A stretch of DNA of 64,000 bases from a virus (IMGVR_UViG_3300031998_000009:96001-160000), one strand, 5' to 3'. Positions 5,673 to 33,367 are shown, numbered from the stretch's first letter. Numbers and translations are program-made. The notes: generated from the letters alone by a model not told the origin.

Positions 5673-6050
5673 TCAAAATAATTTCTTCTTGTTAGTAATG
5701 TATCGAGTTATTACTTTTTGTTCATTACTGGATTTAGGTTTCTTTGTTAATGGGTTTCCACTAACGGTCGTTGTTTCTACAATTCTTACATTATGACCAT
5801 TCAAATTATCAAACCTACTACTTTGTGTAATAATAGGTTGATTTAATTTCATAACATGAAAATCAAAATCAACATAACTATCGGAACTGTTTATACATTC
5901 ACCCAACTTAAACCCATCCACATAATGCAAATAAAAAGTGTTTTCTCTATGTATTAATACATATCTTAAATGACTATCTACAACATATAAACAGGTTAGA
6001 TCATATCCTTTTGGAATTCTGGAAACAACATCAGCTAATAGGAAGTCCAT
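5673..6050 (-). CDS. hypothetical protein with C-terminal KKKLF motif
   Basis: ORF in a contiguous operon. Confidence 0.6.
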   Translation of the reverse strand: MDFLLADVVSRIPKGYDLTCLYVVDSHLRYVLIHRENTFYLHYVDGFKLGECINSSDSYVDFDFHVMKLNQPIITQSSRFDNLNGHNVRIVETTTVSGNPLTKKPKSSNEQKVITRYITNKKKLF

Positions 6051-6573
6051 TATTAACTGTTCCTGTAGAAATAAGATCTATAATAGGATATGTTTTAAAT
6101 GGTTCACACCAACCCCATTCATCTTCTATAAAGTTAGGAATATCAGAAACACGATAATCATTTCTGTCATTCTTTATTTGAACGGATGCGAATATAGCAT
6201 AGGGTAGTTGCTTAAGATCTCTATAGTATTTATATACATATCTATATCCAGAAGCATACAGACCCATTAGTATATTTACAACATTATTAGAAAGAATAGT
6301 AGGTGGTGAGATTCTTACGTTAAATCCATAACTGTTTATAATGTTGATCATTTCATCATCTGTGAATTTAGCATCTAGTGGAATTAATGTAGATGCTCCA
6401 ATATTTACAAATCCACTAAAATATTGTGCATTTGTATTATAGTCTGCGATTGTTATTTGTGTACCTGTTAGATCGTTACCTGTATATTCTGTTACTAATA
6501 TACGAAGATTAGTATAATCAGATCTGGCACCTGTTAATTGATTCCAGGTACTTATCTCTAGTATGTTAGCCAA
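6031..6573 (-). CDS. hypothetical protein
   Basis: 180-aa ORF, TTG start with SD. Confidence 0.65.
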   Translation of the reverse strand: MANILEISTWNQLTGARSDYTNLRILVTEYTGNDLTGTQITIADYNTNAQYFSGFVNIGASTLIPLDAKFTDDEMINIINSYGFNVRISPPTILSNNVVNILMGLYASGYRYVYKYYRDLKQLPYAIFASVQIKNDRNDYRVSDIPNFIEDEWGWCEPFKTYPIIDLISTGTVNNGLPIS

Positions 6574-6589
6574 TATAGTTCACTTCCTT

Positions 6590-7744
6590 TTAACTTACTG
6601 CCGAAATTATTTTATCTACAACAGAGTCAGTCTCGTAACCGGCCGTATTTTCTTTTGTTCCTGGATTATGTAATACGTCATACCACAATGTGTTAGATGT
6701 AGAAGCATCTCCAACTTTTTCAAGTATTTTGTCTCTTGTCCATGCAATAGGAGAATCGGATTCCACAACAACACCTTTTTGTTTAGTACCGGCATTATGT
6801 AAAATATCATACCAAACAGTACCACTGGTGCTGCTATTTGAACCTAGTCTTGTAGCAATATTGTTTACGGTCGTAGCAACAGAACTGATAGAGGATCCAC
6901 CGGAACCAACATTACTATTTATAGTGTTGCTATATCCGAACAATGTGGAAGTTCCTGTGTCTCCGGAGGCACCTATTAATGTATCGATTTTCTTCAGTTT
7001 ACCATTTAAGGTTGCTGCAGATGCGGAATCTGTACTTTGACCTATTCTACCTTCTACATCGCTAAATGAATTAGATATAGTAGTTGTTTGGTCTTTAACA
7101 GAGTGAGCTACACTATCATCGCTCGTAGTACTATCACGAAGTGCTTTAGAAATCGTGTAGGTATCATTATCAGCTTTAATGTTAGTAGCAACTTTTTCTG
7201 TGGATGTTTTTAATGCAATAAGTGTACCATCTGTACTATCATTGAAATTCTCATCCATAACGGTTATAGAATCGACAACATCTTCATTATAATCTTTCAA
7301 TGTATTTGTCTTATCTATACTTGTCGCAATAGTATTATCAAAATAAGAAGGAGGACTTCCGGTTGTTTTGGTCATATCATAATGTAACTGCCAGCACAAG
7401 GTATCGATTGATTTAGTTACAGTATCACTAGAAGCGGTTTCCGCTAATGCGGTTTCTAGTTTATCTAACCATAATTTAGCTTCATTACTAATCGTACTCG
7501 CTGTCCATGATTGAACCTTAACACCGTTTGTACCTATTTTATTGCTGTCGCTAAACTTCTTTTCCATTATAGGTGTAGGTATTCCGGAAACATAAATCAT
7601 ATAACCTTTATATTCAATACCCGTTTTTATCTTTGCATAGAAATGGGAATTACCTACTAATAATGAACATTCACTAACTCTTACCACAAGCGGATCAGAG
7701 GCTTTAGCAACATATGGATAATCGGATTGCGGAGTGTAGGGCAT
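6590..7744 (-). CDS. Ser/Thr-rich hypothetical protein with duplicated C-terminal motif (possible virion protein)
   Basis: STSGTVWYDILHNAGTK / STSNTLWYDVLHNPGTK repeat; AAGGAG SD. Confidence 0.7.
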   Translation of the reverse strand: MPYTPQSDYPYVAKASDPLVVRVSECSLLVGNSHFYAKIKTGIEYKGYMIYVSGIPTPIMEKKFSDSNKIGTNGVKVQSWTASTISNEAKLWLDKLETALAETASSDTVTKSIDTLCWQLHYDMTKTTGSPPSYFDNTIATSIDKTNTLKDYNEDVVDSITVMDENFNDSTDGTLIALKTSTEKVATNIKADNDTYTISKALRDSTTSDDSVAHSVKDQTTTISNSFSDVEGRIGQSTDSASAATLNGKLKKIDTLIGASGDTGTSTLFGYSNTINSNVGSGGSSISSVATTVNNIATRLGSNSSTSGTVWYDILHNAGTKQKGVVVESDSPIAWTRDKILEKVGDASTSNTLWYDVLHNPGTKENTAGYETDSVVDKIISAVS

Positions 7745-8807: not shown

Positions 8808-9239
8808 TTACCCCTCACTTTCTAATCTAGAATACAACTCTTTTAATCTATCACTATATAATGTAGAAAAAACTTTTGGAAGATCGGTTTCTCTATTTAA
8901 AAATGCTTTATATATATCTGTTTTAAATCCACTACATGGTTCGAATTCGAAATCTAAATGTAGGGAAGGTGCCTCTGTAAGTCTATGTTTTTCGTGAAAT
9001 GTTCTAGGTTTTATTGTAACATTTCCTATAAGAGGTATTTCGGTTGTTACCTCCATTTCGTCTAGTGGGGTATCTAACGGATAATTGCATATACTCTCTG
9101 TTACTTTATAACAGATTAGTGTTTCTACTAATCTTAAAAAATCGAAATTATATTTATATGGACTTCCTTGAAGTTGTTGAATTTCAACAGCAATTTGTTT
9201 TGAATCTTTCGTAGAGGTACTACCTTTTGTTCTGGACAT
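8808..9239 (-). CDS. hypothetical protein
   Basis: 143-aa ORF, GGAGG SD. Confidence 0.65.
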   Translation of the reverse strand: MSRTKGSTSTKDSKQIAVEIQQLQGSPYKYNFDFLRLVETLICYKVTESICNYPLDTPLDEMEVTTEIPLIGNVTIKPRTFHEKHRLTEAPSLHLDFEFEPCSGFKTDIYKAFLNRETDLPKVFSTLYSDRLKELYSRLESEG

Positions 9240-9517
9240 TATTTGTACAACCTCCTCAATGTTTGAAGTAGTGTTTTACGATTATAGGAAAGCAATCTTA
9301 ATATTTTAGAAACACATACCTTGATTTGAGTTACAGAGTTATAATCTATATTCATTTCTAATTCGTCTAGTAGTTTATCAAAGGTATCCGTTTCTTGTGT
9401 ATATACTTTTTCTAATTTTACTCTTGCACATCTATTAAATAGTTGACACGGTGTTTCTTCATTGTTAAATAGATTATTTATATCCGTATAACATTCTTGT
9501 ATGATACTCATAATCAA
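9239..9517 (-). CDS. hypothetical protein
   Basis: 92-aa ORF, coupled to neighbours. Confidence 0.6.
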   Translation of the reverse strand: MIMSIIQECYTDINNLFNNEETPCQLFNRCARVKLEKVYTQETDTFDKLLDELEMNIDYNSVTQIKVCVSKILRLLSYNRKTLLQTLRRLYK

Positions 9518-15241: not shown

Positions 15242-15317
15242 TGGTGTCCCGGAACAGAATCGAACTGTTGACACGGGGATTTTCAGTCCCCTGCTCTACC
15301 ATCTGAGCTACCGAGAC
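15242..15317 (-). tRNA. tRNA-Phe(GAA)
   Basis: Cloverleaf, loop CTGAAAA, encoded CCA. Confidence 0.95.
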
Positions 15318-15323
15318 AAATAA

Positions 15324-15407
15324 CGGAAGGAGAGGGACTCGAACCCTCGCACCTTACGGTCTAGCGGTTTAGCAAACCGTCCCCTTCACCAGCTTGAGCA
15401 TCCTTCC
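15324..15407 (-). tRNA. tRNA-Ser(GCT)
   Basis: Cloverleaf with long variable arm, loop TTGCTAA. Confidence 0.93.
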
Positions 15408-15411
15408 TAAA

Positions 15412-15483
15412 AGTGGATGAAGGGAATTGAACCCTCATTACCTGCTTGGAAGGCAGGAGTCTTAACCATTCGACGACATCCAC
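15412..15483 (-). tRNA. tRNA-Gly(TCC)
   Basis: Cloverleaf, loop CTTCCAA. Confidence 0.93.
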
Positions 15484-15487
15484 AAAG

Positions 15488-15561
15488 TCCTCACAGTAGG
15501 ATTCGAACCTGCGACCTACCGCTTAGAAGGCGGTTGCTCTATCCAACTGAGCTATGTGAGG
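15488..15561 (-). tRNA. tRNA-Arg(TCT)
   Basis: Cloverleaf, loop CTTCTAA. Confidence 0.93.
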
Positions 15562-15564
15562 AGA

Positions 15565-15972
15565 TTAGCTACAATTATGACAAGTGTAATGACTACCATC
15601 GATAAATAATTGTCCAGACCAATTTGTATGAACATTAGGTAAATATAATCTAAATGTATCGATTATCATTTCTTTTATTATAGATGTATTTATGCACTTA
15701 TCCATATAAACATTTGATTCGTATATAACTGTTCCATTCACTTGTTTATGGGGTAGTACCTCAACTCTTCCTCTCGGAAAATAGTCATAAGGAACAGGTT
15801 TACCATCTACGATATATTTGTTTTTTAATGTTTCCCAAGATTTCTTGTGAAGTAAGTTTGTCATAAAATATGGATCATTAGGATCAACTGGATCTGTTAA
15901 TGCTACTAGTTCGTTATTTATAACCCAAAATATTCCTTCACAAAGAACTTGTAGACTTTCATAAACTATCAT
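15565..15972 (-). CDS. hypothetical protein within tRNA array
   Basis: 135-aa ORF, GIFW...H...W...YDYFPRGRV...HYTC. Confidence 0.7.
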   Translation of the reverse strand: MIVYESLQVLCEGIFWVINNELVALTDPVDPNDPYFMTNLLHKKSWETLKNKYIVDGKPVPYDYFPRGRVEVLPHKQVNGTVIYESNVYMDKCINTSIIKEMIIDTFRLYLPNVHTNWSGQLFIDGSHYTCHNCS

Positions 15973-16052
15973 TATTTATCATCCTTACCCAGAATACAGC
16001 AAGAATATAGAATTAATGTTATGAATACAGCTACAAATAAAATAACTTTCAT
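15972..16052 (-). CDS. 26-aa single-pass membrane peptide MKVILFVAVFITLILYSCCILGKDDK
   Basis: AAAGGAGG SD; TAATG coupling to the next gene; below the ORF-track cutoff. Confidence 0.6.
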   Translation of the reverse strand: MKVILFVAVFITLILYSCCILGKDDK

Positions 16053-16080
16053 ATATTATTCCTCCTTTATGGAGAAGAAA

Positions 16081-16164
16081 TGGAAGAGATTGGATTCGAA
16101 CCAATGAAGCACATAGGCAACAGATTTACAGTCTGCCCCCTTTGACCAACTCGGGAACTCTTCC
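16081..16164 (-). tRNA. tRNA-Tyr(GTA)
   Basis: Cloverleaf with variable arm, loop CTGTAAA. Confidence 0.93.
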
Positions 16165-16176
16165 AAATTATATTTA

Positions 16177-16311
16177 ATGCCGGGTGAGTAGTTTCAACCT
16201 CACGCATTCCCGTCCAGAGTTACATAACCTTTTTAACGGAGTTGGTCCTCCGAATGTTCTGTCGTAGGGACTGTATTTTCTTTTCGACTTTTAATGCTTG
16301 TCTACCGACAA
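16177..16311 (-). ncRNA. unknown ~135-nt RNA with tRNA-like ends
   Basis: UGUCGG/CCGGCA terminal stem, GCAUU/AAUGC stem, GUGAG-GUUGAAACUA-CUCAC T-arm-like hairpin. Confidence 0.5.
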
Positions 16312-16320
16312 TAAATATAA

Positions 16321-16395
16321 TGACCCTAACGGGATTTGAACCCATGTTTTCAGAATGAAAATCTGACGTCCTAGACCAGACTAGACGATAGGGCC
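16321..16395 (-). tRNA. tRNA-Glu(TTC)
   Basis: Cloverleaf, loop TTTTCAT. Confidence 0.92.
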
Positions 16396-16397
16396 GG

Positions 16398-16472
16398 TGG
16401 TTGTCGTGGTTGGATTTGAACCAACGAATAACGGCTTCAAAGACCGCTGCCTTTCCACTTGGCGACACGACA
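16398..16472 (-). tRNA. tRNA-Gln(TTG)
   Basis: Cloverleaf, U1-A72, loop CTTTGAA, encoded CCA. Confidence 0.92.
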
Positions 16473-16480
16473 ATCACGAA

Positions 16481-16562
16481 TACTACCTGTGGGACTTGAA
16501 CCCACATTCCTTTCGGAACTGGTTTTTGAGACCAGTGCGTATGCCAATTCCGCCAAGGTAGT
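16481..16562 (-). tRNA. tRNA-Leu(CAA)
   Basis: Cloverleaf with variable arm, loop CTCAAAA. Confidence 0.93.
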
Positions 16563-16569
16563 ATAAGAA

Positions 16570-16644
16570 TCGGAATGACAGGATTCGAACCTGCGACATC
16601 CTGCTCCCAAAGCAGGTGATCTAGCCAAACTGATCTACATTCCG
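16570..16644 (-). tRNA. tRNA-Pro(TGG)
   Basis: Cloverleaf, loop TTTGGGA. Confidence 0.93.
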
Positions 16645-16647
16645 AAT

Positions 16648-16765
16648 TGTGTCAACTCAGCTTTACCTCGCCATTAACGACCATTGTCACTTTTGCCGGC
16701 TACCATACTCGTAGCTTTGCTGCTTCTAAATAAGATAATTATAACGAGCAGCGGTTATAATTAAA
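16648..16765 (-). ncRNA. unknown structured RNA with possible pseudoknot
   Basis: 10-bp stem whose loop GCUGCU can pair with downstream AGCAGC; GCUAC/GUAGC hairpin. Confidence 0.4.
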
Positions 16766-16769
16766 TTAG

Positions 16770-16853
16770 TGCTGCTGACCGGACTTGAACCGGTACGGTG
16801 TATCCACCGAGAGATTTTAAGTCTCTTGCGTCTGCCGATTTCGCCACAGCAGC
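16770..16853 (-). tRNA. tRNA-Leu(TAA)
   Basis: Cloverleaf with variable arm, loop CTTAAAA. Confidence 0.93.
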
Positions 16854-16861
16854 AAATATTA

Positions 16862-16933
16862 AGACAAGGGTGAGATTCGAACTCACGATCGCGGTGTTGC
16901 AGACCGCTGTCTTAACCGCTTGACTACCTTGTC
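16862..16933 (-). tRNA. tRNA-Cys(GCA)
   Basis: Cloverleaf, loop CTGCAAC, U discriminator. Confidence 0.92.
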
Positions 16934-16934
16934 G

Positions 16935-17006
16935 TTATGTGAATCTGTTTTGTATGTACGCCGATAATCGTTCTTTCAAAATTATTCGTGTAACAGATTC
17001 ACATAA
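16935..17006. repeat. 15-bp perfect inverted repeat between tRNA-Sup and tRNA-Cys
   Basis: TTATGTGAATCTGTT (16935-16949) / AACAGATTCACATAA (16992-17006). Confidence 0.85.
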
Positions 17007-17008
17007 AA

Positions 17009-17081
17009 TGGGATTGGACAGGATTTGAACCTGCGATCTGGGCTTTAGACGCCCTTGCCTTACCCACTTGGCTACAATCCC
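17009..17081 (-). tRNA. amber suppressor-like tRNA (anticodon CTA), Gln-like body, aberrant
   Basis: GGGATTG/CAATCCC acceptor; GCC-AAGTGGGTAA-GGC D arm; GGGC-GTCTAAA-GCCC anticodon arm; GCAGG-TTCAAAT-CCTGT T arm; extra C before the acceptor 3' strand. Confidence 0.75.
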
Positions 17082-17083
17082 TA

Positions 17084-17297
17084 GTGGAACACCAGTACCT
17101 CTCCCTCTTGACCGATGTATTAACGAACTCCACCTAAATCCGTCCTGTAAGACCTAGTACAGAAAATATCATCTAAATATAACAGGCGTCCCTGCTTCCT
17201 ATTTAACCCATAAGTGGAGTAAGGTTTTACTGCTTACCTTCAAACATCGTCATCTAGGTCCGGATCCTAAATGATTCCAGGTAACTAGGATTACCCT
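17084..17297 (-). ncRNA. unknown ~210-nt multi-stem RNA between tRNA-Thr and tRNA-Sup
   Basis: Nested stems UGGAA/UUCCA, UCAUUUAGG/CCUAGAUGA, CGAUGU/ACAUCG, ACUCCACUUA/UAGGUGGAGU. Confidence 0.5.
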
Positions 17298-17300
17298 TGA

Positions 17301-17373
17301 AGCTGGATGACGGACTCGAACCCCCGACCTGCTGATTACAAATCAGCTGCACTACCAACTGTGCTAATCCAGC
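17301..17373 (-). tRNA. tRNA-Thr(TGT)
   Basis: Cloverleaf, loop TTTGTAA. Confidence 0.93.
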
Positions 17374-17375
17374 AA

Positions 17376-17570
17376 AGTGTCTGTCTATCCAGACTGTCAT
17401 AAGGCACTGCCACTTATGTTACCGTCTACCGTAAGCCTTATTCCCCTCTCGACGACCGTTAACGGAGTGGTCCATTCCGGATGTCTTGTTAAGGTACAAA
17501 CTCTTAAACCTTACTTTCTCAAGGTTATTTTATAGAACCGTTTGATATAAGTAATAAACCTTTCAGTTCT
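17376..17570 (-). ncRNA. unknown ~195-nt structured RNA between tRNA-Asn and tRNA-Thr
   Basis: AUAAGGC/GCCUUAU, AACCUU/AAGGUU and GUCUG/CAGAC stems; shares a motif with 16177-16311. Confidence 0.5.
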
Positions 17571-17572
17571 TT

Positions 17573-17648
17573 TGGCTCCCGTAGACAGACTCGAACTGCC
17601 GACTTGATCATTAACAGTGACCCGTTCTACCAACTGAACTATATGGGA
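17573..17648 (-). tRNA. tRNA-Asn(GTT)
   Basis: Cloverleaf, loop CTGTTAA, G discriminator + CCA. Confidence 0.93.
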
Positions 17649-17652
17649 ATGA

Positions 17653-17726
17653 TGGGCTCTCTGGGACTCGAACCCAGGACCACCCGGTTATGAGCCGGAA
17701 GCGCTAACCGACTGCGCTAAGAGCCC
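17653..17726 (-). tRNA. tRNA with CAT anticodon, probably Ile2 (lysidine) rather than Met
   Basis: CCGG-CTCATAA-CCGG anticodon arm typical of Firmicutes Ile2. Confidence 0.85.
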
Positions 17727-17819
17727 GTATAAACTCCTACAAAAACAATGCATGGTTATCATTGAAACATCGGAGTTTGTGTTTTTTACATTTGAAAGAA
17801 AGGAATATCAAATGTCTGG

Positions 17820-17895
17820 TGGTGTGCCAACTGGGATTTGAACCCAGGACCCCTTCCTTAAAAGGGAAGTGTTCTGCCAGCTGAACTATTGGCAC
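17820..17895 (-). tRNA. tRNA-Lys(TTT)
   Basis: Cloverleaf, loop CTTTTAA, encoded CCA. Confidence 0.93.
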
Positions 17896-25812: not shown

Positions 25813-26397
25813 TTAATGTTTTGTTGTGATATTTGAATAAAGTTCCTGTCTCAATGAGGCATTAGCACGGAACTCACCACCTAAAGCACAGGTCCTAGTA
25901 ATACTAGGTTTCTTAATACCTCTTGCCGACATACAACTGTGTCTGCCCTGAATGATAACAGCGACACTATCCGTATTAAGAATTTTTTGAAGTATCTCCA
26001 TGATGTCACTTCCAATACGTTCCTGAAGCTGTAAACGCTTACCTACCATATCTGCGATTCTGGCAATCTTGGAAAGTCCAATAACTCTACCATTCGGAAT
26101 GTATGCCACAGATACAGTCATATCAAACATAAGTGCAATATGATGTTCGCAGTAGCTATAAATAGGAATTTCGTCTACAATTACAAGGTCTCCCATTGTA
26201 GTGTCCTCGAAACACTTATCAAACATTGTAGCGATTTCGTCATTGGTATAGCACATACCTTCGAATACTTCTTCGTACATCTTTGCTACTCGTTTAGGAG
26301 TATCTAAAAGTCCTTCTCTATCCGGATTGTCTCCGAGAGCAATAAGAATATTACGAATGGACTGCTCAATAAGTTCTTTATTGATCTTTTTAGACAT
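25813..26397 (-). CDS. folE: GTP cyclohydrolase I
   Basis: [40 protein letters not shown]. Confidence 0.97.
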
Positions 26398-26758
26398 TCT
26401 CGCACACTTCCTTCTTATCCTTTTTAAGATTTATTGGATTAAGGTCAATGTTTAATAATTGTGCTCTTAATTCCAATAAGTACAGATATCTTGTCATAGC
26501 TTCTTCCTGGTCTCGCATAATCTGATTTAAGGTATATTTTTCACTTCTACGTTTTTCATCGTCTTTAGTGTAACAGATTTCGTTACTATAACCTCTATCC
26601 ATCACACGGCATTCTGCTTCTTCTCTAACATTACTAACATGAAGTTTATTCAGTCTAATTCTTGTCTGCCAATATTCAGCAAGAAATCTATCTCTAAAAT
26701 CATCAGAAACAGAGGCTTGAATAGTATCTCCCATCATAACTTCAACAATATCTAACAT
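26390..26758 (-). CDS. phage hypothetical protein
   Basis: [13 protein letters not shown]...Q..AM..YL..LE.RA pattern; start at 26758 behind GAGGAG. Confidence 0.7.
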
Positions 26759-26759
26759 A

Positions 26760-27458
26760 TTAAACTCCTCTCGCATTAAAATCCCAGATATACTTGTGAA
26801 TTTGTAATTGCATACGAACATCGAACAGATCATTTTGAATTATATATTCTACAATTTGTTTAGGTTCGATCATACCAAAAATAGGACTTACAAAAATATG
26901 CGGCATATCTGAATAACTATTTTTAATAGTAGTTATCCATCTTTTCATATCCTCTAAGTCCTCTTTTGTACCTACCACAAACTTTACAACATCCCAATCA
27001 TTAAGATTTTTTGTAAAGTTTTCAGGAATCATTTTATTGTTTTCACCGCTAGAAATAGATTTATAGTCAATAGTAAAGATTAATCTTTCATGAGAGTATG
27101 ACGATAAAGATGTAAGTAATCTTTTCTTAAATGGTTGAATGTCAACAGCGCCGCAGGTTTCTACATTTACTTCAAAACCTTCCTCCAGTAATGCTTCAAT
27201 GAGCTCGGCAGAATCTTTTTGAATAAGAGGTTCTCCACCTGTGAAAGTCACATAGGGTGTTTTATTGGATTTACAATATTCTACAATTTCTTCTACTGTC
27301 ATGTCTTTAGGTTCAGCACCGTGTCCGACTTCATTTGCGTAAATACTATCACAGTAGTTGCAGCACAAAATACAACCGAAACTTCGTATAAAAGTAACAA
27401 TTTTTCCTGTTCTAATACCTTCACCGTCAATAGATTTAAACAACTCAACTATTTTCAT
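26760..27458 (-). CDS. queE: 7-carboxy-7-deazaguanine synthase (radical SAM)
   Basis: ELFKSIDGEG, CxxxCxxC (CILCCNYCD), TGGEPL, ETCG, LQIHK. Confidence 0.95.
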   Translation of the reverse strand: MKIVELFKSIDGEGIRTGKIVTFIRSFGCILCCNYCDSIYANEVGHGAEPKDMTVEEIVEYCKSNKTPYVTFTGGEPLIQKDSAELIEALLEEGFEVNVETCGAVDIQPFKKRLLTSLSSYSHERLIFTIDYKSISSGENNKMIPENFTKNLNDWDVVKFVVGTKEDLEDMKRWITTIKNSYSDMPHIFVSPIFGMIEPKQIVEYIIQNDLFDVRMQLQIHKYIWDFNARGV

Positions 27459-27461
27459 AGT

Positions 27462-27920
27462 TTAACCTCTTTTCCAGGTGGCATGAGAATTAGTGGTTTC
27501 CCACAAATCAATTTTATCTACTGTACATTCCAAATTAGGAAAGTTGTTATTTAATAAGGATTGGATGTCATTAGCAAATGCCTTTACCATATTCTCGGCA
27601 GATGGACTATTCTCCATCTTGAAAATACGCATATTAGCTTGTTCTAGAACCTCTCTAATCTTGCCCTCTGTAGTCTCCGGACCATTACTCATATTGGTAA
27701 TGAAGGAATGATCTGGTACATAATCTTTCAGGATTTTATTTAACACACTGAAATCCACGACAAAATTAAATTTGTTTGACATTCTATCATATTCTGGACA
27801 ACTGATTGTAACTTCCAGTTTATATGAGTGTCCATGTAGGTTACCACAGAGTCCTTCGTAACCATAAAGAAGATGTGCTGCCTCAAACTCTACATGACGA
27901 GTAACACTGATACGATCCAA
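27462..27920 (-). CDS. queD: 6-carboxy-tetrahydropterin synthase
   Basis: FEAAH, CGNLHGHSY, DH, SAEN, WET. Confidence 0.95.
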   Translation of the reverse strand: MDRISVTRHVEFEAAHLLYGYEGLCGNLHGHSYKLEVTISCPEYDRMSNKFNFVVDFSVLNKILKDYVPDHSFITNMSNGPETTEGKIREVLEQANMRIFKMENSPSAENMVKAFANDIQSLLNNNFPNLECTVDKIDLWETTNSHATWKRG

Positions 27921-27938
27921 ACTAAAAACCTCCTCTTT

Positions 27939-28418
27939 TTAATAAATTGTTCCTTTATTTTCTGAATAATTTTTATATAATTCTTGAGCTAGATCTCTGT
28001 CCCTAAACTCGAATTCTAGTTCATTTGTATTGTAACACATTTTTGAAAGATTGTCAATAGTCTCATAAATATGTTTATCTTTAAACCCAATATGTTCGGC
28101 ATCTTCTAACGTACCAGAAATATAAACTTTCTTTATATTTGCCCACATTATAGCACCTAAACACATTGGACAAGGATAACCTGTTGCATATAATTCACAA
28201 TCAGATAAATCATGTGTTTGTAGTTTTTGACACGCTTTTCTTATAGCGTTTATCTCGGCATGAGCTGTAGGATCTTTAGTACCTAGTACTGTATTAGATT
28301 CACAGCTTATAAGTTTTCCATCTCTTACAACACTTGCCCCGAAAGGTCCACCTAAACCTAAATTAGAATTAGTATATGCTATATCTACAGCTTGCAGCAT
28401 AAAGGTTTTATTATACAT
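27939..28418 (-). CDS. guaD: guanine deaminase (GuaD-type, cytidine deaminase fold)
   Basis: GGPFGA, DPTAHAEINAIRKAC, PCPMCLGAI.WA, GF.D..IY: closely follows the Bacillus GuaD pattern. Confidence 0.85.
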   Translation of the reverse strand: MYNKTFMLQAVDIAYTNSNLGLGGPFGASVVRDGKLISCESNTVLGTKDPTAHAEINAIRKACQKLQTHDLSDCELYATGYPCPMCLGAIMWANIKKVYISGTLEDAEHIGFKDKHIYETIDNLSKMCYNTNELEFEFRDRDLAQELYKNYSENKGTIY

Positions 28419-28430
28419 AGAATAATCACC

Positions 28431-28811
28431 TTATTCCCATGGAAATTTAATCCAGAGATTACCTTTTTCCATATTCCAATAATCTGGAGTTACTTTTGCA
28501 TCCTTCTTATAGAACATAGTAGCAATATAGTATCCTTTATCTTTCCAAGCAAGTGCTGTATTACCTGTATCACAGATATCATCTACAATAAGGCATCCAG
28601 GTTGTGGGGCACCTAGAAATGGAAGATTAAGTTTATGTGAAAGCATTACGGCAAACACCAAACCACCTCTAGCAGGTCCGTATACACCTGTGAATGACCT
28701 ACCCTGTGTCTGAATAACACTTGTTAAACAATATATGAACTCATTTACTTGATCCCATGTTACATAGTATACTTCTGGGGTCATATCTTTTTTATCCCTA
28801 TCATTTAGCAT
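28431..28811 (-). CDS. purine (xanthine/guanine-type) phosphoribosyltransferase
   Basis: VTW, ARGGL, LIVDDICDTGNT PRPP motif, WIKFPWE C-terminus as in Gpt. Confidence 0.85.
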   Translation of the reverse strand: MLNDRDKKDMTPEVYYVTWDQVNEFIYCLTSVIQTQGRSFTGVYGPARGGLVFAVMLSHKLNLPFLGAPQPGCLIVDDICDTGNTALAWKDKGYYIATMFYKKDAKVTPDYWNMEKGNLWIKFPWE

Positions 28812-30057
28812 AATCTTTTTCCTTATCCTTAAAATCTAAACGCTCTTCATACTCAATAGGATCCACCAAACCGTTTCTAAAGAACGCTTTCTGTCTCATA
28901 AAACAAGGACCACAATGCCCACAGGCTTTATCCCCATTTCTGTAACAAGACCACGTATATTCAAAAGGTGCCTTATATTTAAGACCAAAGGGAATAATTT
29001 CATGCTTCATTAAGTTACCCACAGGAGTTCTAATCTCCACATACTTTCCATTTTGAACAGCTCCATACAAACAACTATTAAAATCCTTAATAAACTGTTC
29101 TTCATTATCAGGATATGCCCCAGACTCTTCTAAATTTGTCCCTAAATAAATGTAACTAAAATTATTTGCCTCCGCATAACCTACGGCCATTGACATCATA
29201 ATAAGGTTACGGGCAGGTACCCATTCATGGGCATATTCACTTCCAGAAACGCTCTCGGAAATGTTTTCCTTACCGTCCAAAATTGTACTTGCATGAGCCA
29301 TAAAATGTAAATCTAAATCCATTACATATAAAGAGCAATTACCATATGTGTGATTAAGAGATTCCTGAATCTTTTTAATTCGAATCAATTCGGGTGTCTC
29401 CGCTAGGCACCCATAATTATAATGCAATAAAGTCACTTTCTTATGTGTGGCACAAGCGTATGCTGCAACGGCGGTGCTATCTAAACCTGCTGAAGCAATA
29501 ACAATGGCGCTATCTTGAACATCCCTTTTTATACTTATAATCTCCCTTGTTTCAGAATCCATTATAGAATAAGGGGGAACTCTTTTAACATCCCCAATAG
29601 AAACCAAGTGATGTGCATAAGAACTAAAATAAAAATTACCATCCTTATCGTAAGAATAAAAAATGGGCTTATAATTACAGGCGAGGTAGAAATTTCCATC
29701 CGGTTTTAAAATTCCGATGGCATAGGCCCCTACCACCTTATACAAACTATCCCTTAGAGAATAAATATTTGTAAAGTCCAGAACTTTACTAAGTACATAA
29801 CTATCAATCATCCCATCTGGATTTCCTAATTCTCTATCATTACTAATAGTTCCATTATGAACTATTTTATAGTCCGTTCCGAAAGGTTGATTAAATTCGG
29901 CATTTTCAACCTCCGTCGTAGGAACTGCCCTATGGTTACAAATCCAGCTCCCTTTTCTATAAAAAACATTACTATAGTCTCTACCCCGATCTAAGGACGT
30001 TTGAAATATAGAAAGAAATTTTTCATTCAGGGAGGTTCCACCACAAATCGTACACAT
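28801..30057 (-). CDS. queC: Gat-QueC fusion (class II glutamine amidotransferase + 7-cyano-7-deazaguanine synthase)
   Basis: N-terminal MC (Ntn Cys), HRA.P, HNGTISN; SAGLDS, VPARN, YPD, TWSCY...CGHCGPC. Confidence 0.93.
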   Translation of the reverse strand: MCTICGGTSLNEKFLSIFQTSLDRGRDYSNVFYRKGSWICNHRAVPTTEVENAEFNQPFGTDYKIVHNGTISNDRELGNPDGMIDSYVLSKVLDFTNIYSLRDSLYKVVGAYAIGILKPDGNFYLACNYKPIFYSYDKDGNFYFSSYAHHLVSIGDVKRVPPYSIMDSETREIISIKRDVQDSAIVIASAGLDSTAVAAYACATHKKVTLLHYNYGCLAETPELIRIKKIQESLNHTYGNCSLYVMDLDLHFMAHASTILDGKENISESVSGSEYAHEWVPARNLIMMSMAVGYAEANNFSYIYLGTNLEESGAYPDNEEQFIKDFNSCLYGAVQNGKYVEIRTPVGNLMKHEIIPFGLKYKAPFEYTWSCYRNGDKACGHCGPCFMRQKAFFRNGLVDPIEYEERLDFKDKEKDYAK

Positions 30058-30069
30058 AAAAATCTCCTT

Positions 30070-30954
30070 TCAGAATAAAGATTTTTTTAAACCTTTTAAT
30101 TTACGTTCATGGTTATTTGCAAATTGTTGAAGGTACATAATATTAACAAGACATCTTATTTTATAATCTTCCATACATTGTTGAACGGTAAAACCTAGAG
30201 ATTTTAAATAAATTTGAACCTGTTCCTGTTCATCCTTTTTCATATTAGCATAATTTTTTGCCAGATAATCTTGCTTCTCACTAATATTAATGACTCCCCA
30301 AGGTGACATTATACCCCCGTTAGCACTTGTCATAATCCACGCTGTGGAGTCCGCACTTTTAAAAGGATAAGACTTCAAAAGAGGTTTAGAAGTCATACCA
30401 AAAGCGTGAACTTTAATGTCGGGTCTCACTTTCTGTATAACTTTATAACAGGACTGAAAAAAATTATCTAAAATACTCTTTGTACTACCCACCAATCCTC
30501 CTAGCGCAATATAATCAATATCATCATCCTGTAGGTACTTATATAAATATTGAATATTGTCACCTTGGTGATATGTAGGAAGTAATTTATGCTTATCTTT
30601 ACAATGCTCCTTTAAATATAAATAGTTCTCATAACTTTTTTTATCTGAATCTGGAACACCACTACCACCAATAATATCTAAACTCGCAAATATATCAATG
30701 TACTCGATGATATTATTTATATATTGAATATAGTTATCTATATCGATAGTAACACCTTGAGTAAAAGCTGTGTAGGCACCGCAATCTATAAATAATTTAT
30801 TTTTAGCATTTTGGGTAGACTTTTTAAAGTCTACCCAGGATCTAATAATAGACTTGTCGCTGTAATAGGAAAGAAGTCTATTACAACCATTATTCATCAT
30901 ATAATCTTCGGCGAGTTTATTTTGGCTTCCGGCAAAATAAATATCAAATGCCAA
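30070..30954 (-). CDS. dpdA: DpdA-like TGT-fold 7-deazaguanine DNA transglycosylase
   Basis: FIDCGAY, LDII, PTYH, ALGGLV, VHAFG, SADSTAW; context between polA and que genes. Confidence 0.8.
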   Translation of the reverse strand: MAFDIYFAGSQNKLAEDYMMNNGCNRLLSYYSDKSIIRSWVDFKKSTQNAKNKLFIDCGAYTAFTQGVTIDIDNYIQYINNIIEYIDIFASLDIIGGSGVPDSDKKSYENYLYLKEHCKDKHKLLPTYHQGDNIQYLYKYLQDDDIDYIALGGLVGSTKSILDNFFQSCYKVIQKVRPDIKVHAFGMTSKPLLKSYPFKSADSTAWIMTSANGGIMSPWGVINISEKQDYLAKNYANMKKDEQEQVQIYLKSLGFTVQQCMEDYKIRCLVNIMYLQQFANNHERKLKGLKKSLF

Positions 30955-31018: not shown

Positions 31019-33367
31019 TTACAATGTATTCACATCAATTGATTCTCCGTACCAACTATAAAACAATTCAACATCACAAGTGAGTGGAACACAGAGATCA
31101 CGTCCTGCATTTATCATACATTGACTCATGAGTTCGGCACACCGTTTAGCATTTTCTACAGGACACTCTGCTATAATTTCATCATGTACGGGAATTAACA
31201 TTCTAAAACCTAGTTCTTTTAGCTCCTTATGGTTAAACAATTCTATTTGTGCTAACTTTGTCAAATCAGCACTCGAGCCTTGAACACGACTGTTTACAAC
31301 CTCTCGTTTAGCCTTAGCGATATGTCCAGTGTTATCTTTAATGTTAATACCGGATTGACGAATCTTTTCCTTTATAAGTTCACGTTCTTTATAATTACAT
31401 CTAAGAAGTCTATTAGTGAGACGTCTAACTTCTTCTTCTGGAACTTCTGTAGAGTAATTTGTCTCTTCATCTGAAAGTGGATCAAAATCAGGAGTCATAC
31501 CATTCTTATATGTGAACTCATAATATGGAAGTTGCATGGCAGGCAACTGTCGACGTCGTCCCCAAACAGTAGTAACATATCCGTATTCTCTTGCCATGTC
31601 CTCTGATTCTTCCAAGAACATAGCGAGACCTGGGAACTTTGCTAGAACCTTATCGTAAATTGCCTGTGCTTCTTTACGATTTTTATGAAGTTGTTCACCT
31701 ATAGATGCTATACCTCTTCCATAAAGAATGCCAAGAACAACTGGTTTTGCCGTAGCTCTTCTTTCTTTACCTTCTTTACTGTATGTTCCATCAGGTCGTT
31801 TCTCACAACATTCTTCATATGGAACATTAAAAATGATAGAAGCTATTTCAGAGTAAACATCCTTACCGTCCTTATAAGCCTGAATCATCTTTTCATCTTG
31901 ACTTAAATGAGCAGTAACACGAACTTCTTGTCCGGAATAGTCACAAGATAACATAATGTATCCTGGAGAGGCTGTAAACAACTGTCTTACATCATGTCCT
32001 GAATCTATTTCTGTTCCGTCTTTTAATTTAAATGAACGGGAAGGGATATTCTGTAAATTCGGCGAGTCACTACTAACACGACCTGTTTCAGCACCATACT
32101 GATTGAATTTACAGTGAATTCGTTTATCCGGATATTTGGATGCTTCTTCTGGCATCTTATCAATGTAAGTAGAAACGACTTTTTTGAATTTTCTAACGTC
32201 TGATATAGCATTGCACAAAGGGTGATCTAGTTGTTCTAGTATTTCCTTGTCGGTCCCTCTAGGTTTTTCCTTATCTGGAGATTTCAAACCTAATATATCA
32301 TACAAAACAATAGCAAGTTGCTGAGTGCTTCCTAGATTAATTGGATCAGATAACTTACATCCAGGATGACTTCTTCTATACTCGTCTATTTGTCCCATAT
32401 AATCCTCTAGAACATTATCTAGATTCTGCTGCATTGTATCTGTGAGTTTATGATATTTCTCCTGTATCTTTTTGGCATGCTCATAATCTATTGCTGTACC
32501 TAAATTCTCCATAGCAATAAAGGTCGGCATAGATTTCATTTCGATGTTAAAAAATACATTAGACACACCTTGCATATTATGTGATTCATAATAAATACCA
32601 TTTGGTTCCAGATACTGTGCTTGAAAATCAGCTAATTCATCTGTATAAATAGCATCATGAGCCGCGTATAAATAGGCAACATCAATAGGAATTAGGTTGA
32701 ACGGTATTCCTTCGAACAACTTTCCAAAAGTTAATACTTCACCTTTTCCATCGTTACAATATTTATTACGAAGGTCTTTCAGGCTCTTTTCACCTTTTTT
32801 CTCGTCACTATTAAGACACATAGCAGCGATATAACAATCCCAATAAGGAGTAAACCACACACCTACGTGATTTCCAAGAATTTTAATATCAAAGGGTGCG
32901 TTGAACCAATATGTTTTTACGTCGGCATCAACTAATCTTTGGAACTGTTCTCTTATAAAATCAACAGGTAGCTGATCATTACATTTTACATTGGTTATAT
33001 AGCTAACATGATTAATAGGAATATAAGCAGGTTTAAGACCTTCTGTATGAATACAGATACCTACAATATCATCAAGTATTGTATTTAATCCTGTAGTTTC
33101 TGTATCAATACTTATCCTATTATTTTCAATAGCTTTGTCAATGTAATCTATAAGTGATTGTTCTTCCCGTATAAGAAGTAAAGAATCCTCTTTACCTTCA
33201 AATTTAGACTTTACAAAAGAACAAGCTGCCTGAATTCTGTCAATGAGTTTTCCAGAACCCTTTAATTTAATATTATTATCTTGGATAGGTTGTGTGACTT
33301 TTTTAAGTAGTTGCTGGTCCTTTTTGGTAGTAGCACGGCTGCTAGGTAAATTAAAGAATCCAGCCAT
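31019..33367 (-). CDS. polA: family A DNA polymerase with 3'-5' exonuclease
   Basis: IDTETTG, YAAHDA, TGRVSS.PNLQNIP, DYSGQEVR, AKPVVLGILYG, QGSSAD, VHDE. Confidence 0.96.
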   Translation of the reverse strand: MAGFFNLPSSRATTKKDQQLLKKVTQPIQDNNIKLKGSGKLIDRIQAACSFVKSKFEGKEDSLLLIREEQSLIDYIDKAIENNRISIDTETTGLNTILDDIVGICIHTEGLKPAYIPINHVSYITNVKCNDQLPVDFIREQFQRLVDADVKTYWFNAPFDIKILGNHVGVWFTPYWDCYIAAMCLNSDEKKGEKSLKDLRNKYCNDGKGEVLTFGKLFEGIPFNLIPIDVAYLYAAHDAIYTDELADFQAQYLEPNGIYYESHNMQGVSNVFFNIEMKSMPTFIAMENLGTAIDYEHAKKIQEKYHKLTDTMQQNLDNVLEDYMGQIDEYRRSHPGCKLSDPINLGSTQQLAIVLYDILGLKSPDKEKPRGTDKEILEQLDHPLCNAISDVRKFKKVVSTYIDKMPEEASKYPDKRIHCKFNQYGAETGRVSSDSPNLQNIPSRSFKLKDGTEIDSGHDVRQLFTASPGYIMLSCDYSGQEVRVTAHLSQDEKMIQAYKDGKDVYSEIASIIFNVPYEECCEKRPDGTYSKEGKERRATAKPVVLGILYGRGIASIGEQLHKNRKEAQAIYDKVLAKFPGLAMFLEESEDMAREYGYVTTVWGRRRQLPAMQLPYYEFTYKNGMTPDFDPLSDEETNYSTEVPEEEVRRLTNRLLRCNYKERELIKEKIRQSGINIKDNTGHIAKAKREVVNSRVQGSSADLTKLAQIELFNHKELKELGFRMLIPVHDEIIAECPVENAKRCAELMSQCMINAGRDLCVPLTCDVELFYSWYGESIDVNTL

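Follow-up and report, generated by a model that had tools for sequence, protein, structure and literature searches.

The question raised by the locus described here is what a guanine deaminase and a purine phosphoribosyltransferase (PRT) are doing in the middle of a large gut phage's gene cluster for the modification of DNA with 7-deazaguanines. The locus lies in a 64,000-nucleotide stretch of viral DNA (IMGVR_UViG_3300031998_000009, positions 96001-160000), hereafter called the window, in whose own numbering coordinates are given unless another locus is named. On the basis of the folds and conserved residues of the two proteins, the structure of the operon and the recurrent linkage of both genes to deazaguanine clusters and to the DNA guanine transglycosylase DpdA, all of which are directly observed, we favour on balance, with somewhat better than even confidence, the view that guanine, released by DpdA as its by-product, is the substrate of both enzymes, which together constitute a sink for it and a route for its salvage back to GTP.

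The original prediction, made from the sequence of the window, placed the deaminase and the PRT between gat-queC and queD and described them as tightly coupled to their neighbours, and on both counts it was correct. The two open reading frames (ORFs) have exactly the predicted boundaries on the minus strand; Gat-QueC and PRT overlap by 11 nt, gaps of 12 nt and 18 nt separate PRT from deaminase and deaminase from QueD, respectively, and each of these two gaps contains a ribosome-binding site. The genes follow one another in the order PolA, DpdA, Gat-QueC, PRT, deaminase, QueD, QueE, FolE, as listed below:

31019-33367, minus strand: PolA, a DNA polymerase of family A, encoded immediately upstream of the cluster (PF00476, E = 1.4e-89)
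30070-30954, minus strand: DpdA, the DNA guanine transglycosylase (phrog_887, E = 1.7e-50)
28801-30057, minus strand: Gat-QueC, a glutamine amidotransferase fused to QueC (PF06508, E = 5e-50, and GATase domains)
28431-28811, minus strand: the short Gpt-like purine PRT, 126 aa (Pfam, NCBIfam and PHROG matches)
27939-28418, minus strand: the CDA-fold guanine deaminase of the B. subtilis GuaD type, 159 aa (PF00383, dCMP_cyt_deam_1, E = 1.4e-21)
27462-27920, minus strand: QueD, the 6-carboxytetrahydropterin (CPH4) synthase (PF01242, E = 8e-23; TIGR03367)
26760-27458, minus strand: QueE, the 7-carboxy-7-deazaguanine (CDG) synthase, a radical SAM enzyme (TIGR03963, E = 1.3e-70)
26390-26833, minus strand: a crAss001_48-like ORF between QueE and FolE (PF21825), overlapping the end of QueE by 74 nt
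25813-26397, minus strand: FolE, GTP cyclohydrolase I, the entry point of the pathway (PF01227, E = 2e-61)

Since DpdA, FolE, QueD and QueE as well as Gat-QueC lie contiguously within 25813-30954, the locus qualifies as a DpdA 7-deazaguanine cluster. In tblastn searches its DpdA has matches among phage transglycosylases, namely those of Flasso, Dp-1 and 9g, and its Gat-QueC shares about 41% identity, across 92% of its length, with Gat-QueC of the 9g-like coliphages. According to ORF calls and profile matches, the cluster is embedded in a single long minus-strand replication module that extends over 19.9-37 kb of the window and that also encodes DnaB, a primase, SSB, the family A polymerase, a sliding clamp, a Cas4-like nuclease, RecA and a UvrD-type helicase.

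The association of the PRT with deazaguanine genes is by no means confined to the window. The PRT family comprises 223 protein-database clusters, many on contigs of 175-240 kb, and its linkage to deazaguanine genes extends over at least four phage backbones. When IMG/VR was scanned with the family alignment, 17 loci were returned, with que genes or dpdA within 8 kb in 16 and the deaminase also present in 10; for the sole remaining locus, the same record encodes DpdA at a distance of about 29 kb. Relatives of the window of about 200 kb exhibit the same gene order, with the deaminase present or absent, and in one of them a gene for a YhhQ-type transporter adjoins that of the PRT. A different backbone, with ParB, HU and portal genes as neighbours, is that of two complete phages, one of 128 kb and the other of 132 kb; there QueC and PRT overlap, FolE lies about 9 kb away and DpdA is encoded nearby, and no CDA deaminase was found anywhere in either genome. 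In Flavobacterium phage immuto_2-6A (NC_055915) the PRT is gp211 (8974-9369 of that locus), located between QueE and FolE; the same phage has a gene annotated as thymidylate kinase between DpdN and QueF. This phage has been published as fully fdPreQ1-modified (PMC10516641), and the main text of that paper mentions no phosphoribosyltransferase and likewise does not discuss the thymidylate kinase gene. Finally, in 42-kb Stenotrophomonas and Pseudomonas phages the PRT domain (approximately residues 1-112) is fused to the N-terminus of FolE, in a protein annotated simply as 'GTP cyclohydrolase I' (NC_072504 gp47, 5754-6647 of that locus; cluster order QueE-QueC-QueD-[PRT-FolE]-DpdA). The fusion is shared by Pseudomonas phages Baskent_P4_1 and PSASB_03 and by Stenotrophomonas phage Bhz54. 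A search for longer forms of the PRT yielded no other informative fusion: the only two longer database ORFs join it to NUMOD4/HNH homing-endonuclease domains.

A mosaic relative of the window, IMGVR_UViG_3300028832_000095, is very similar to it in DpdA (91% identity), Gat-QueC (94%) and FolE (87%) and much less so in PRT (71%), deaminase (66%), QueE (60%) and QueD (50%), which suggests, as far as identities can tell, recombination inside the operon. In relatives represented by six loci, insertions of homing endonucleases of the GIY-YIG and HNH types occur inside the cluster, and PolA is fragmented.

The deaminase was followed in the same way. A scan of IMG/VR with its alignment gave 223 relatives, and the gene context was read for the best 80 loci. 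Que genes or dpdA are present within 8 kb in 58 of these 80 viral GuaD-like loci, and the PRT is also present in only 12 of the 80. The original prediction was to be abandoned if guaD proved not to be linked to dpd clusters elsewhere; on these counts the linkage is clearly there. The arrangement varies: besides the order of the window, we found the deaminase and the PRT swapped, the order DpdA-...-deaminase-QueC-QueE-FolE, the order QueC-QueD-QueE-FolE with the deaminase 1.6-2.6 kb further on, and the order FolE-DpdA-clamp-Cas4-like with the deaminase about 2 kb further on. In five loci there is a minimal module, PolA-DpdA-QueC-deaminase-YhhQ(Vut_1)-clamp, in which no FolE, QueD or QueE was detected; the precursors of these phages are probably imported or supplied by the host. 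In some lineages the deaminase adjoins a dUTPase-like gene and RecA instead of que genes. DpdA was found in all nine virus records that were searched for it, and it is annotated beside the cluster in both cultured phages (NC_055915 and NC_072504).

As regards its identity, the deaminase has as its closest solved relative the guanine deaminase of B. subtilis (bGD, the product of guaD; 1WKQ/1TIY; E = 4e-35, with residues 2-123 aligned), which it resembles in the CDA fold, in a nearly equal length and in the zinc motifs H-A-E and P-C-x-x-C. Residues N42, H53, E55, C83, C86, W92 and D114 are all aligned with 1WKQ and retained, and across 32 to 119 relatives every family-invariant position is kept in the clade of the window deaminase, including N42, D114 and the terminal Ile-Tyr. 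In single-sequence comparisons bGD scores 124 bits, plant guanosine deaminase (GSDA) 105 and TadA 69; with a family profile the scores are 159 bits for bGD, 143 for GSDA, 133 for 5JFY (a chain deposited as deoxycytidine deaminase) and 96 for TadA. Assignment of the window protein as TadA or as a dCMP deaminase was also considered and is ruled out by score. W92, common to the window deaminase and bGD and not found in plant guanosine deaminase, is a hint only as to specificity. The clade does exhibit specific substitutions at positions 88, 91, 104, 113 and 120 and a three-residue insert, which carry little weight because the comparison set is partly phage-derived: in the tree, several of its members are identical to proteins of viral contigs. 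The tree also revealed many unlabelled database proteins to be phage proteins, and we build no argument on whether the phage deaminases are mono- or polyphyletic. One low-GC Clostridia metagenome-assembled genome (MAG) has a genuine homologue on its chromosome, with DUF218, glycerophosphodiesterase and SpoVA genes among its neighbours, which is 51% identical over the full length and also ends in Ile-Tyr. Taken together, the enzyme looks like an ordinary bGD-type guanine deaminase, with no sign of altered specificity that we could recognize in its residues. A second, weaker match to a CDA-fold deaminase, possibly a dCMP deaminase, lies outside the window in the same genome (92061-92399).

The PRT is a more distant relative of characterized enzymes. 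It is matched by Pfam Pribosyltran (E = 5e-7), by PHROG 8995 (E = 7.6e-17) and, weakly, by structures of xanthine/guanine PRTs in the PDB (E = 2e-8 to 2e-7). Its AlphaFold2 model (pLDDT 93) is closest to E. coli xanthine-guanine phosphoribosyltransferase (XGPRT), with a TM-score of 0.76 both to it and to the purine PRT of P. horikoshii. The type I PRT fold is evident, and the RGG and DDIxDxG motifs are invariant in 40 family members. Aligned with XGPRT (PDB 1A95/4JLS), the window protein retains the RGG pyrophosphate (PPi) loop, the DDxxDTG motif for phosphoribosyl pyrophosphate (PRPP) and the equivalents of D92, K115, W134 and I135, the residues of 6-oxopurine recognition and catalysis. Because it falls far under the NCBIfam cut-off for xanthine PRTs, we do not call it Gpt; judged by its sequence, it is a Gpt-like short PRT. 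Homologues up to 59.5% identical are encoded in chromosomes of Clostridia, in the neighbourhood of a LysR regulator, a chromate transporter and peptidases, and because these are ordinary chromosomal contexts, the short form is, on this comparison, no phage invention. At four loci in chromosomes of Clostridia MAGs, lid-less PRTs with lengths of about 123-131 aa make up an uncharacterised family.

How the two enzymes would work together can be outlined as follows. Guanine is the one substrate common to the GuaD and Gpt enzyme families. It is also the stoichiometric by-product of DpdA, and each of the two genes is attached to DpdA clusters, often singly, which is why we read both as guanine-handling. 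DpdA would exchange guanine in phage DNA for a 7-deazaguanine, releasing one free guanine per exchange; the presence of Gat-QueC suggests, by analogy with phage 9g, that the base inserted here may be the archaeosine base. The deaminase would turn the freed guanine to xanthine, so that it would neither accumulate nor compete for the DpdA-DNA intermediate. The PRT, with PRPP, would convert guanine or xanthine to GMP or XMP, which host enzymes would then take to GTP, the substrate of FolE, and the purine would thereby be recycled into new deazaguanine. The substrates, the direction of the flux and any effect on the level of modification are what we infer here. That the PRT is fused to FolE in some phages agrees with its acting where the pathway is supplied with GTP. 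Five records were examined for a phage guanylate kinase and a GMP synthase, and neither was found; the steps after the PRT would therefore depend on the host, whether the module serves for sink and salvage or for the production of nucleotides. A recycling loop that removes competing guanine had been put forward in the original prediction; the comparative evidence (recurrence, presence of DpdA, an ordinary guanine deaminase and a PRT of the 6-oxopurine type) favours it as a proposal and leaves its actual operation presumed. A possible variant would close the guanine cycle: PRT and deaminase would then make the by-product of DpdA the main feedstock, and possibly a nitrogen source, for new deazaguanine.

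A number of observations weigh against this reading. Against the NCBIfam model for xanthine PRT (NF006613) the PRT scores 47.4 bits, under a cut-off of 138. The equivalent of K115 is not invariant, a few relatives having H or Q in its place. Some 26 residues, corresponding to the flexible-loop hairpin at about positions 56-82 of the XGPRT chain, are absent, leaving 126 aa in the window protein versus 152 in XGPRT; this hairpin-less short form is common to all que-linked relatives, and the hairpin is present in more distant phage PRTs (L007-L012). The missing loop and the low Gpt score put the substrate of the PRT, and even its catalytic competence, in doubt, as far as sequence can indicate. 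Its bacterial homologues stand alone, with no purine or que genes nearby. In the case of the deaminase, the C-terminal 36 residues cannot be aligned by sequence with B. subtilis GuaD; the last 40 residues, searched alone against solved structures, gave chance matches only, and the alignment does not establish that the terminal Tyr of the window family matches the swapped C-terminal Tyr of bGD, Tyr156. No que genes are found near 22 of the best 80 viral GuaD-like loci, some of them in giant-virus bins, and the que-linked loci are not independent events where they share a backbone, since many have one and the same replication module (SSB, PolA, clamp, Cas4-like) and many come from one sample. 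The deaminase may, moreover, be a sink only, as deamination followed by formation of XMP costs one amination more than direct salvage of guanine. To these points must be added the existence of a PRT of comparable setting and proven different specificity, to which we now turn.

TubE and ToyH, of the tubercidin and toyocamycin pathways, are PRTs encoded together with homologues of FolE, QueD and QueE (and of QueC), and TubE, whose gene lies beside the FolE, QueD and QueE homologues, has been shown to be specific for CDG (PMC6112128). By analogy, the PRT of the window might couple 7-cyano-7-deazaguanine (preQ0), CDG or the archaeosine base to PRPP, with the deaminase only clearing competing guanine. 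Host enzymes would reduce and phosphorylate the resulting deaza-nucleotide and the family A polymerase encoded alongside would build it into DNA, much as the original prediction had envisaged in its second version, unless the nucleotide had some other use. We regard this explanation, in both its parts, as possible and rather doubtful. The translational coupling of PRT to QueC in several lineages, the more open active site that would result from the loss of the lid loop, the position of PolA next to the cluster and the 7-amido-7-deazaguanine (ADG) nucleoside reported in CP220-infected cells (as cited in PMC10516641) all agree with it. On the other hand, DpdA, a user of free bases, is present in every PRT-bearing record searched or annotated for it, and its constancy argues against incorporation of nucleotides as the main route, even though TubE provides a precedent for the PRT reaction itself. 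Nor was a phage guanylate kinase found; the Asp equivalent to D92, which acts on N7 in 6-oxopurine PRTs, is retained; homologues up to 59.5% identical occur in Clostridia chromosomes with no que genes around; the sole known fusion is to FolE, the GTP-using step, and not to QueC; and TubE is longer (194 aa versus 126). According to the published view, all known 7-deazaguanine DNA modifications are post-replicative. The clusters differ as well: those of TubE and ToyH have tailoring enzymes such as a GMP reductase or a decarboxylase and no nucleic-acid transglycosylase, whereas in the window the reverse is the case, with no GMP reductase in the cluster and with DpdA in every record checked. Were the explanation true, its consequence would be the larger one, as these phages would run a pre-replicative, polymerase-driven route beside the base exchange by DpdA.

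Both genes could also be generic purine-salvage auxiliaries of the nucleotide and replication module of the phage, close to que genes by shared ancestry and conserved order within a single large group of gut phages, with no specific tie in function. The common SSB-PolA-DpdA-clamp-Cas4-like backbone of most que-linked loci, the 22 of 80 GuaD-like loci without que genes (giant-virus bins included), the lineages in which a dUTPase-like gene and RecA adjoin the deaminase, and the solitary bacterial homologues of both genes would all be expected in this case. Nevertheless, we consider it unlikely, as the PRT accompanies que genes in backbones that are not related (that of the 128-kb phages, that of the Flavobacterium myovirus and that of the 42-kb Stenotrophomonas phages with the FolE fusion), the QueC-PRT overlap persists where the remaining que genes are dispersed, and the deaminase stays with the cluster across rearrangements, down to the minimal DpdA-QueC-deaminase-YhhQ module. 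Very unlikely, in our opinion, is action of the deaminase on a 7-deazaguanine, the other proposal of the original prediction, or on the modified base in DNA, giving a 7-deazaxanthine-type product (+0.98 Da) that would be a new DNA base. The 2-amino group is recognised by enzymes of the TGT family, and the pairing of a xanthine-type base with C would be poor. The location of the deaminase inside the pathway operon, often adjoining QueC, might be taken to point in this direction, and so might its few clade-specific substitutions and three-residue insert, were it not for the partly phage-derived comparison set; yet all invariant residues and all aligned guanine-contact residues are unchanged, leaving no active-site change to account for a new substrate. 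Besides, guanine deaminases of the CDA fold are, according to a review (PMC9081823), tailored to guanine and very intolerant of changes in its scaffold, with a C-terminal lid that restricts the size of the ligand. We give as little credence to a role of the deaminase mainly as a supplier of ammonia to QueC or Gat-QueC, by which the 2-amino nitrogen of the freed guanine would be reused for the next nitrile or amidine. QueC does need ammonia, Gat-QueC exemplifies the coupling of an ammonia-generating domain to QueC (PMC10516641), and in several gene orders the deaminase is directly beside QueC. In other orders, however, it is kilobases away, and there is no evidence that the two proteins touch. 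Cellular ammonia, moreover, is normally not limiting.

Returning to the sink and salvage of guanine, what such a module would contribute can be seen from the scale of the process. Modification of phage DNA with 7-deazaguanines has been described as the work of five or six genes plus tailoring enzymes, and neither the fate of the released guanine nor the upkeep of high levels of modification has been addressed so far. By a rough estimate, the replacement of one quarter of G in about 100 genomes of 200 kb would release guanine on a millimolar scale per cell, far above its solubility, and an equal amount of GTP would be needed again. A module for guanine sink and salvage would explain both the forward drive of the exchange and the source of the purine, and it could improve the heterologous production of modified DNA. 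The PRT is already present in a published phage, immuto_2-6A, reported with full replacement of G, and is left undiscussed in the main text of that report.

As to the origin of the window, it is part of a 198.5-kb IMG/VR virus record, with an estimated completeness of 86% and a GC content of about 33%. A megablast search with the cluster found no near-identical phage record. Nearly identical phage contigs have been binned in Clostridia, Romboutsia and Acholeplasma-like MAGs, and one Clostridia MAG has chromosomal homologues of both the deaminase and the PRT; from the binning and these homologues, the host is probably a low-GC Firmicute. The window also contains an array of 16 tRNA genes (15242-17895, minus strand), one of which, with a CUA anticodon (17009-17081), is labelled Pyl by ARAGORN.

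Among known systems, the locus is closest to the deoxyarchaeosine (dG+) cluster of the phage 9g type (PMC6884629, PMC10516641), with which it shares the same five genes, FolE, QueD, QueE, Gat-QueC and DpdA, the window DpdA being related to those of 9g and Dp-1 and its Gat-QueC about as similar to those of the 9g relatives as given above. It differs from that cluster in its backbone of about 200 kb and in its two extra genes, which are mentioned in the main text of neither paper. Our literature searches found no description of a PRT or a guanine deaminase in these clusters, and the main papers on phage deazaguanine clusters mention neither in their main texts; this agrees with the original prediction, which knew of no phage dpd cluster described as containing GuaD. 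Both protein families and the pathway are already known, and the apparent novelty lies in the recurrence, among the deazaguanine clusters of phages, of a module for handling guanine. Compared with B. subtilis GuaD, whose aligned residues N42, W92 and D114 it conserves, the window deaminase has been placed in a phage DNA-modification operon instead of a context of purine catabolism. A more general parallel is offered by accessory enzymes that clear a canonical competitor or feed a precursor of the modification, such as the dCTPase of T4 and DatZ and MazZ of the Z-genome phages. Those enzymes act on nucleotides before replication, whereas the target proposed here would be the free base released by a post-replicative exchange.

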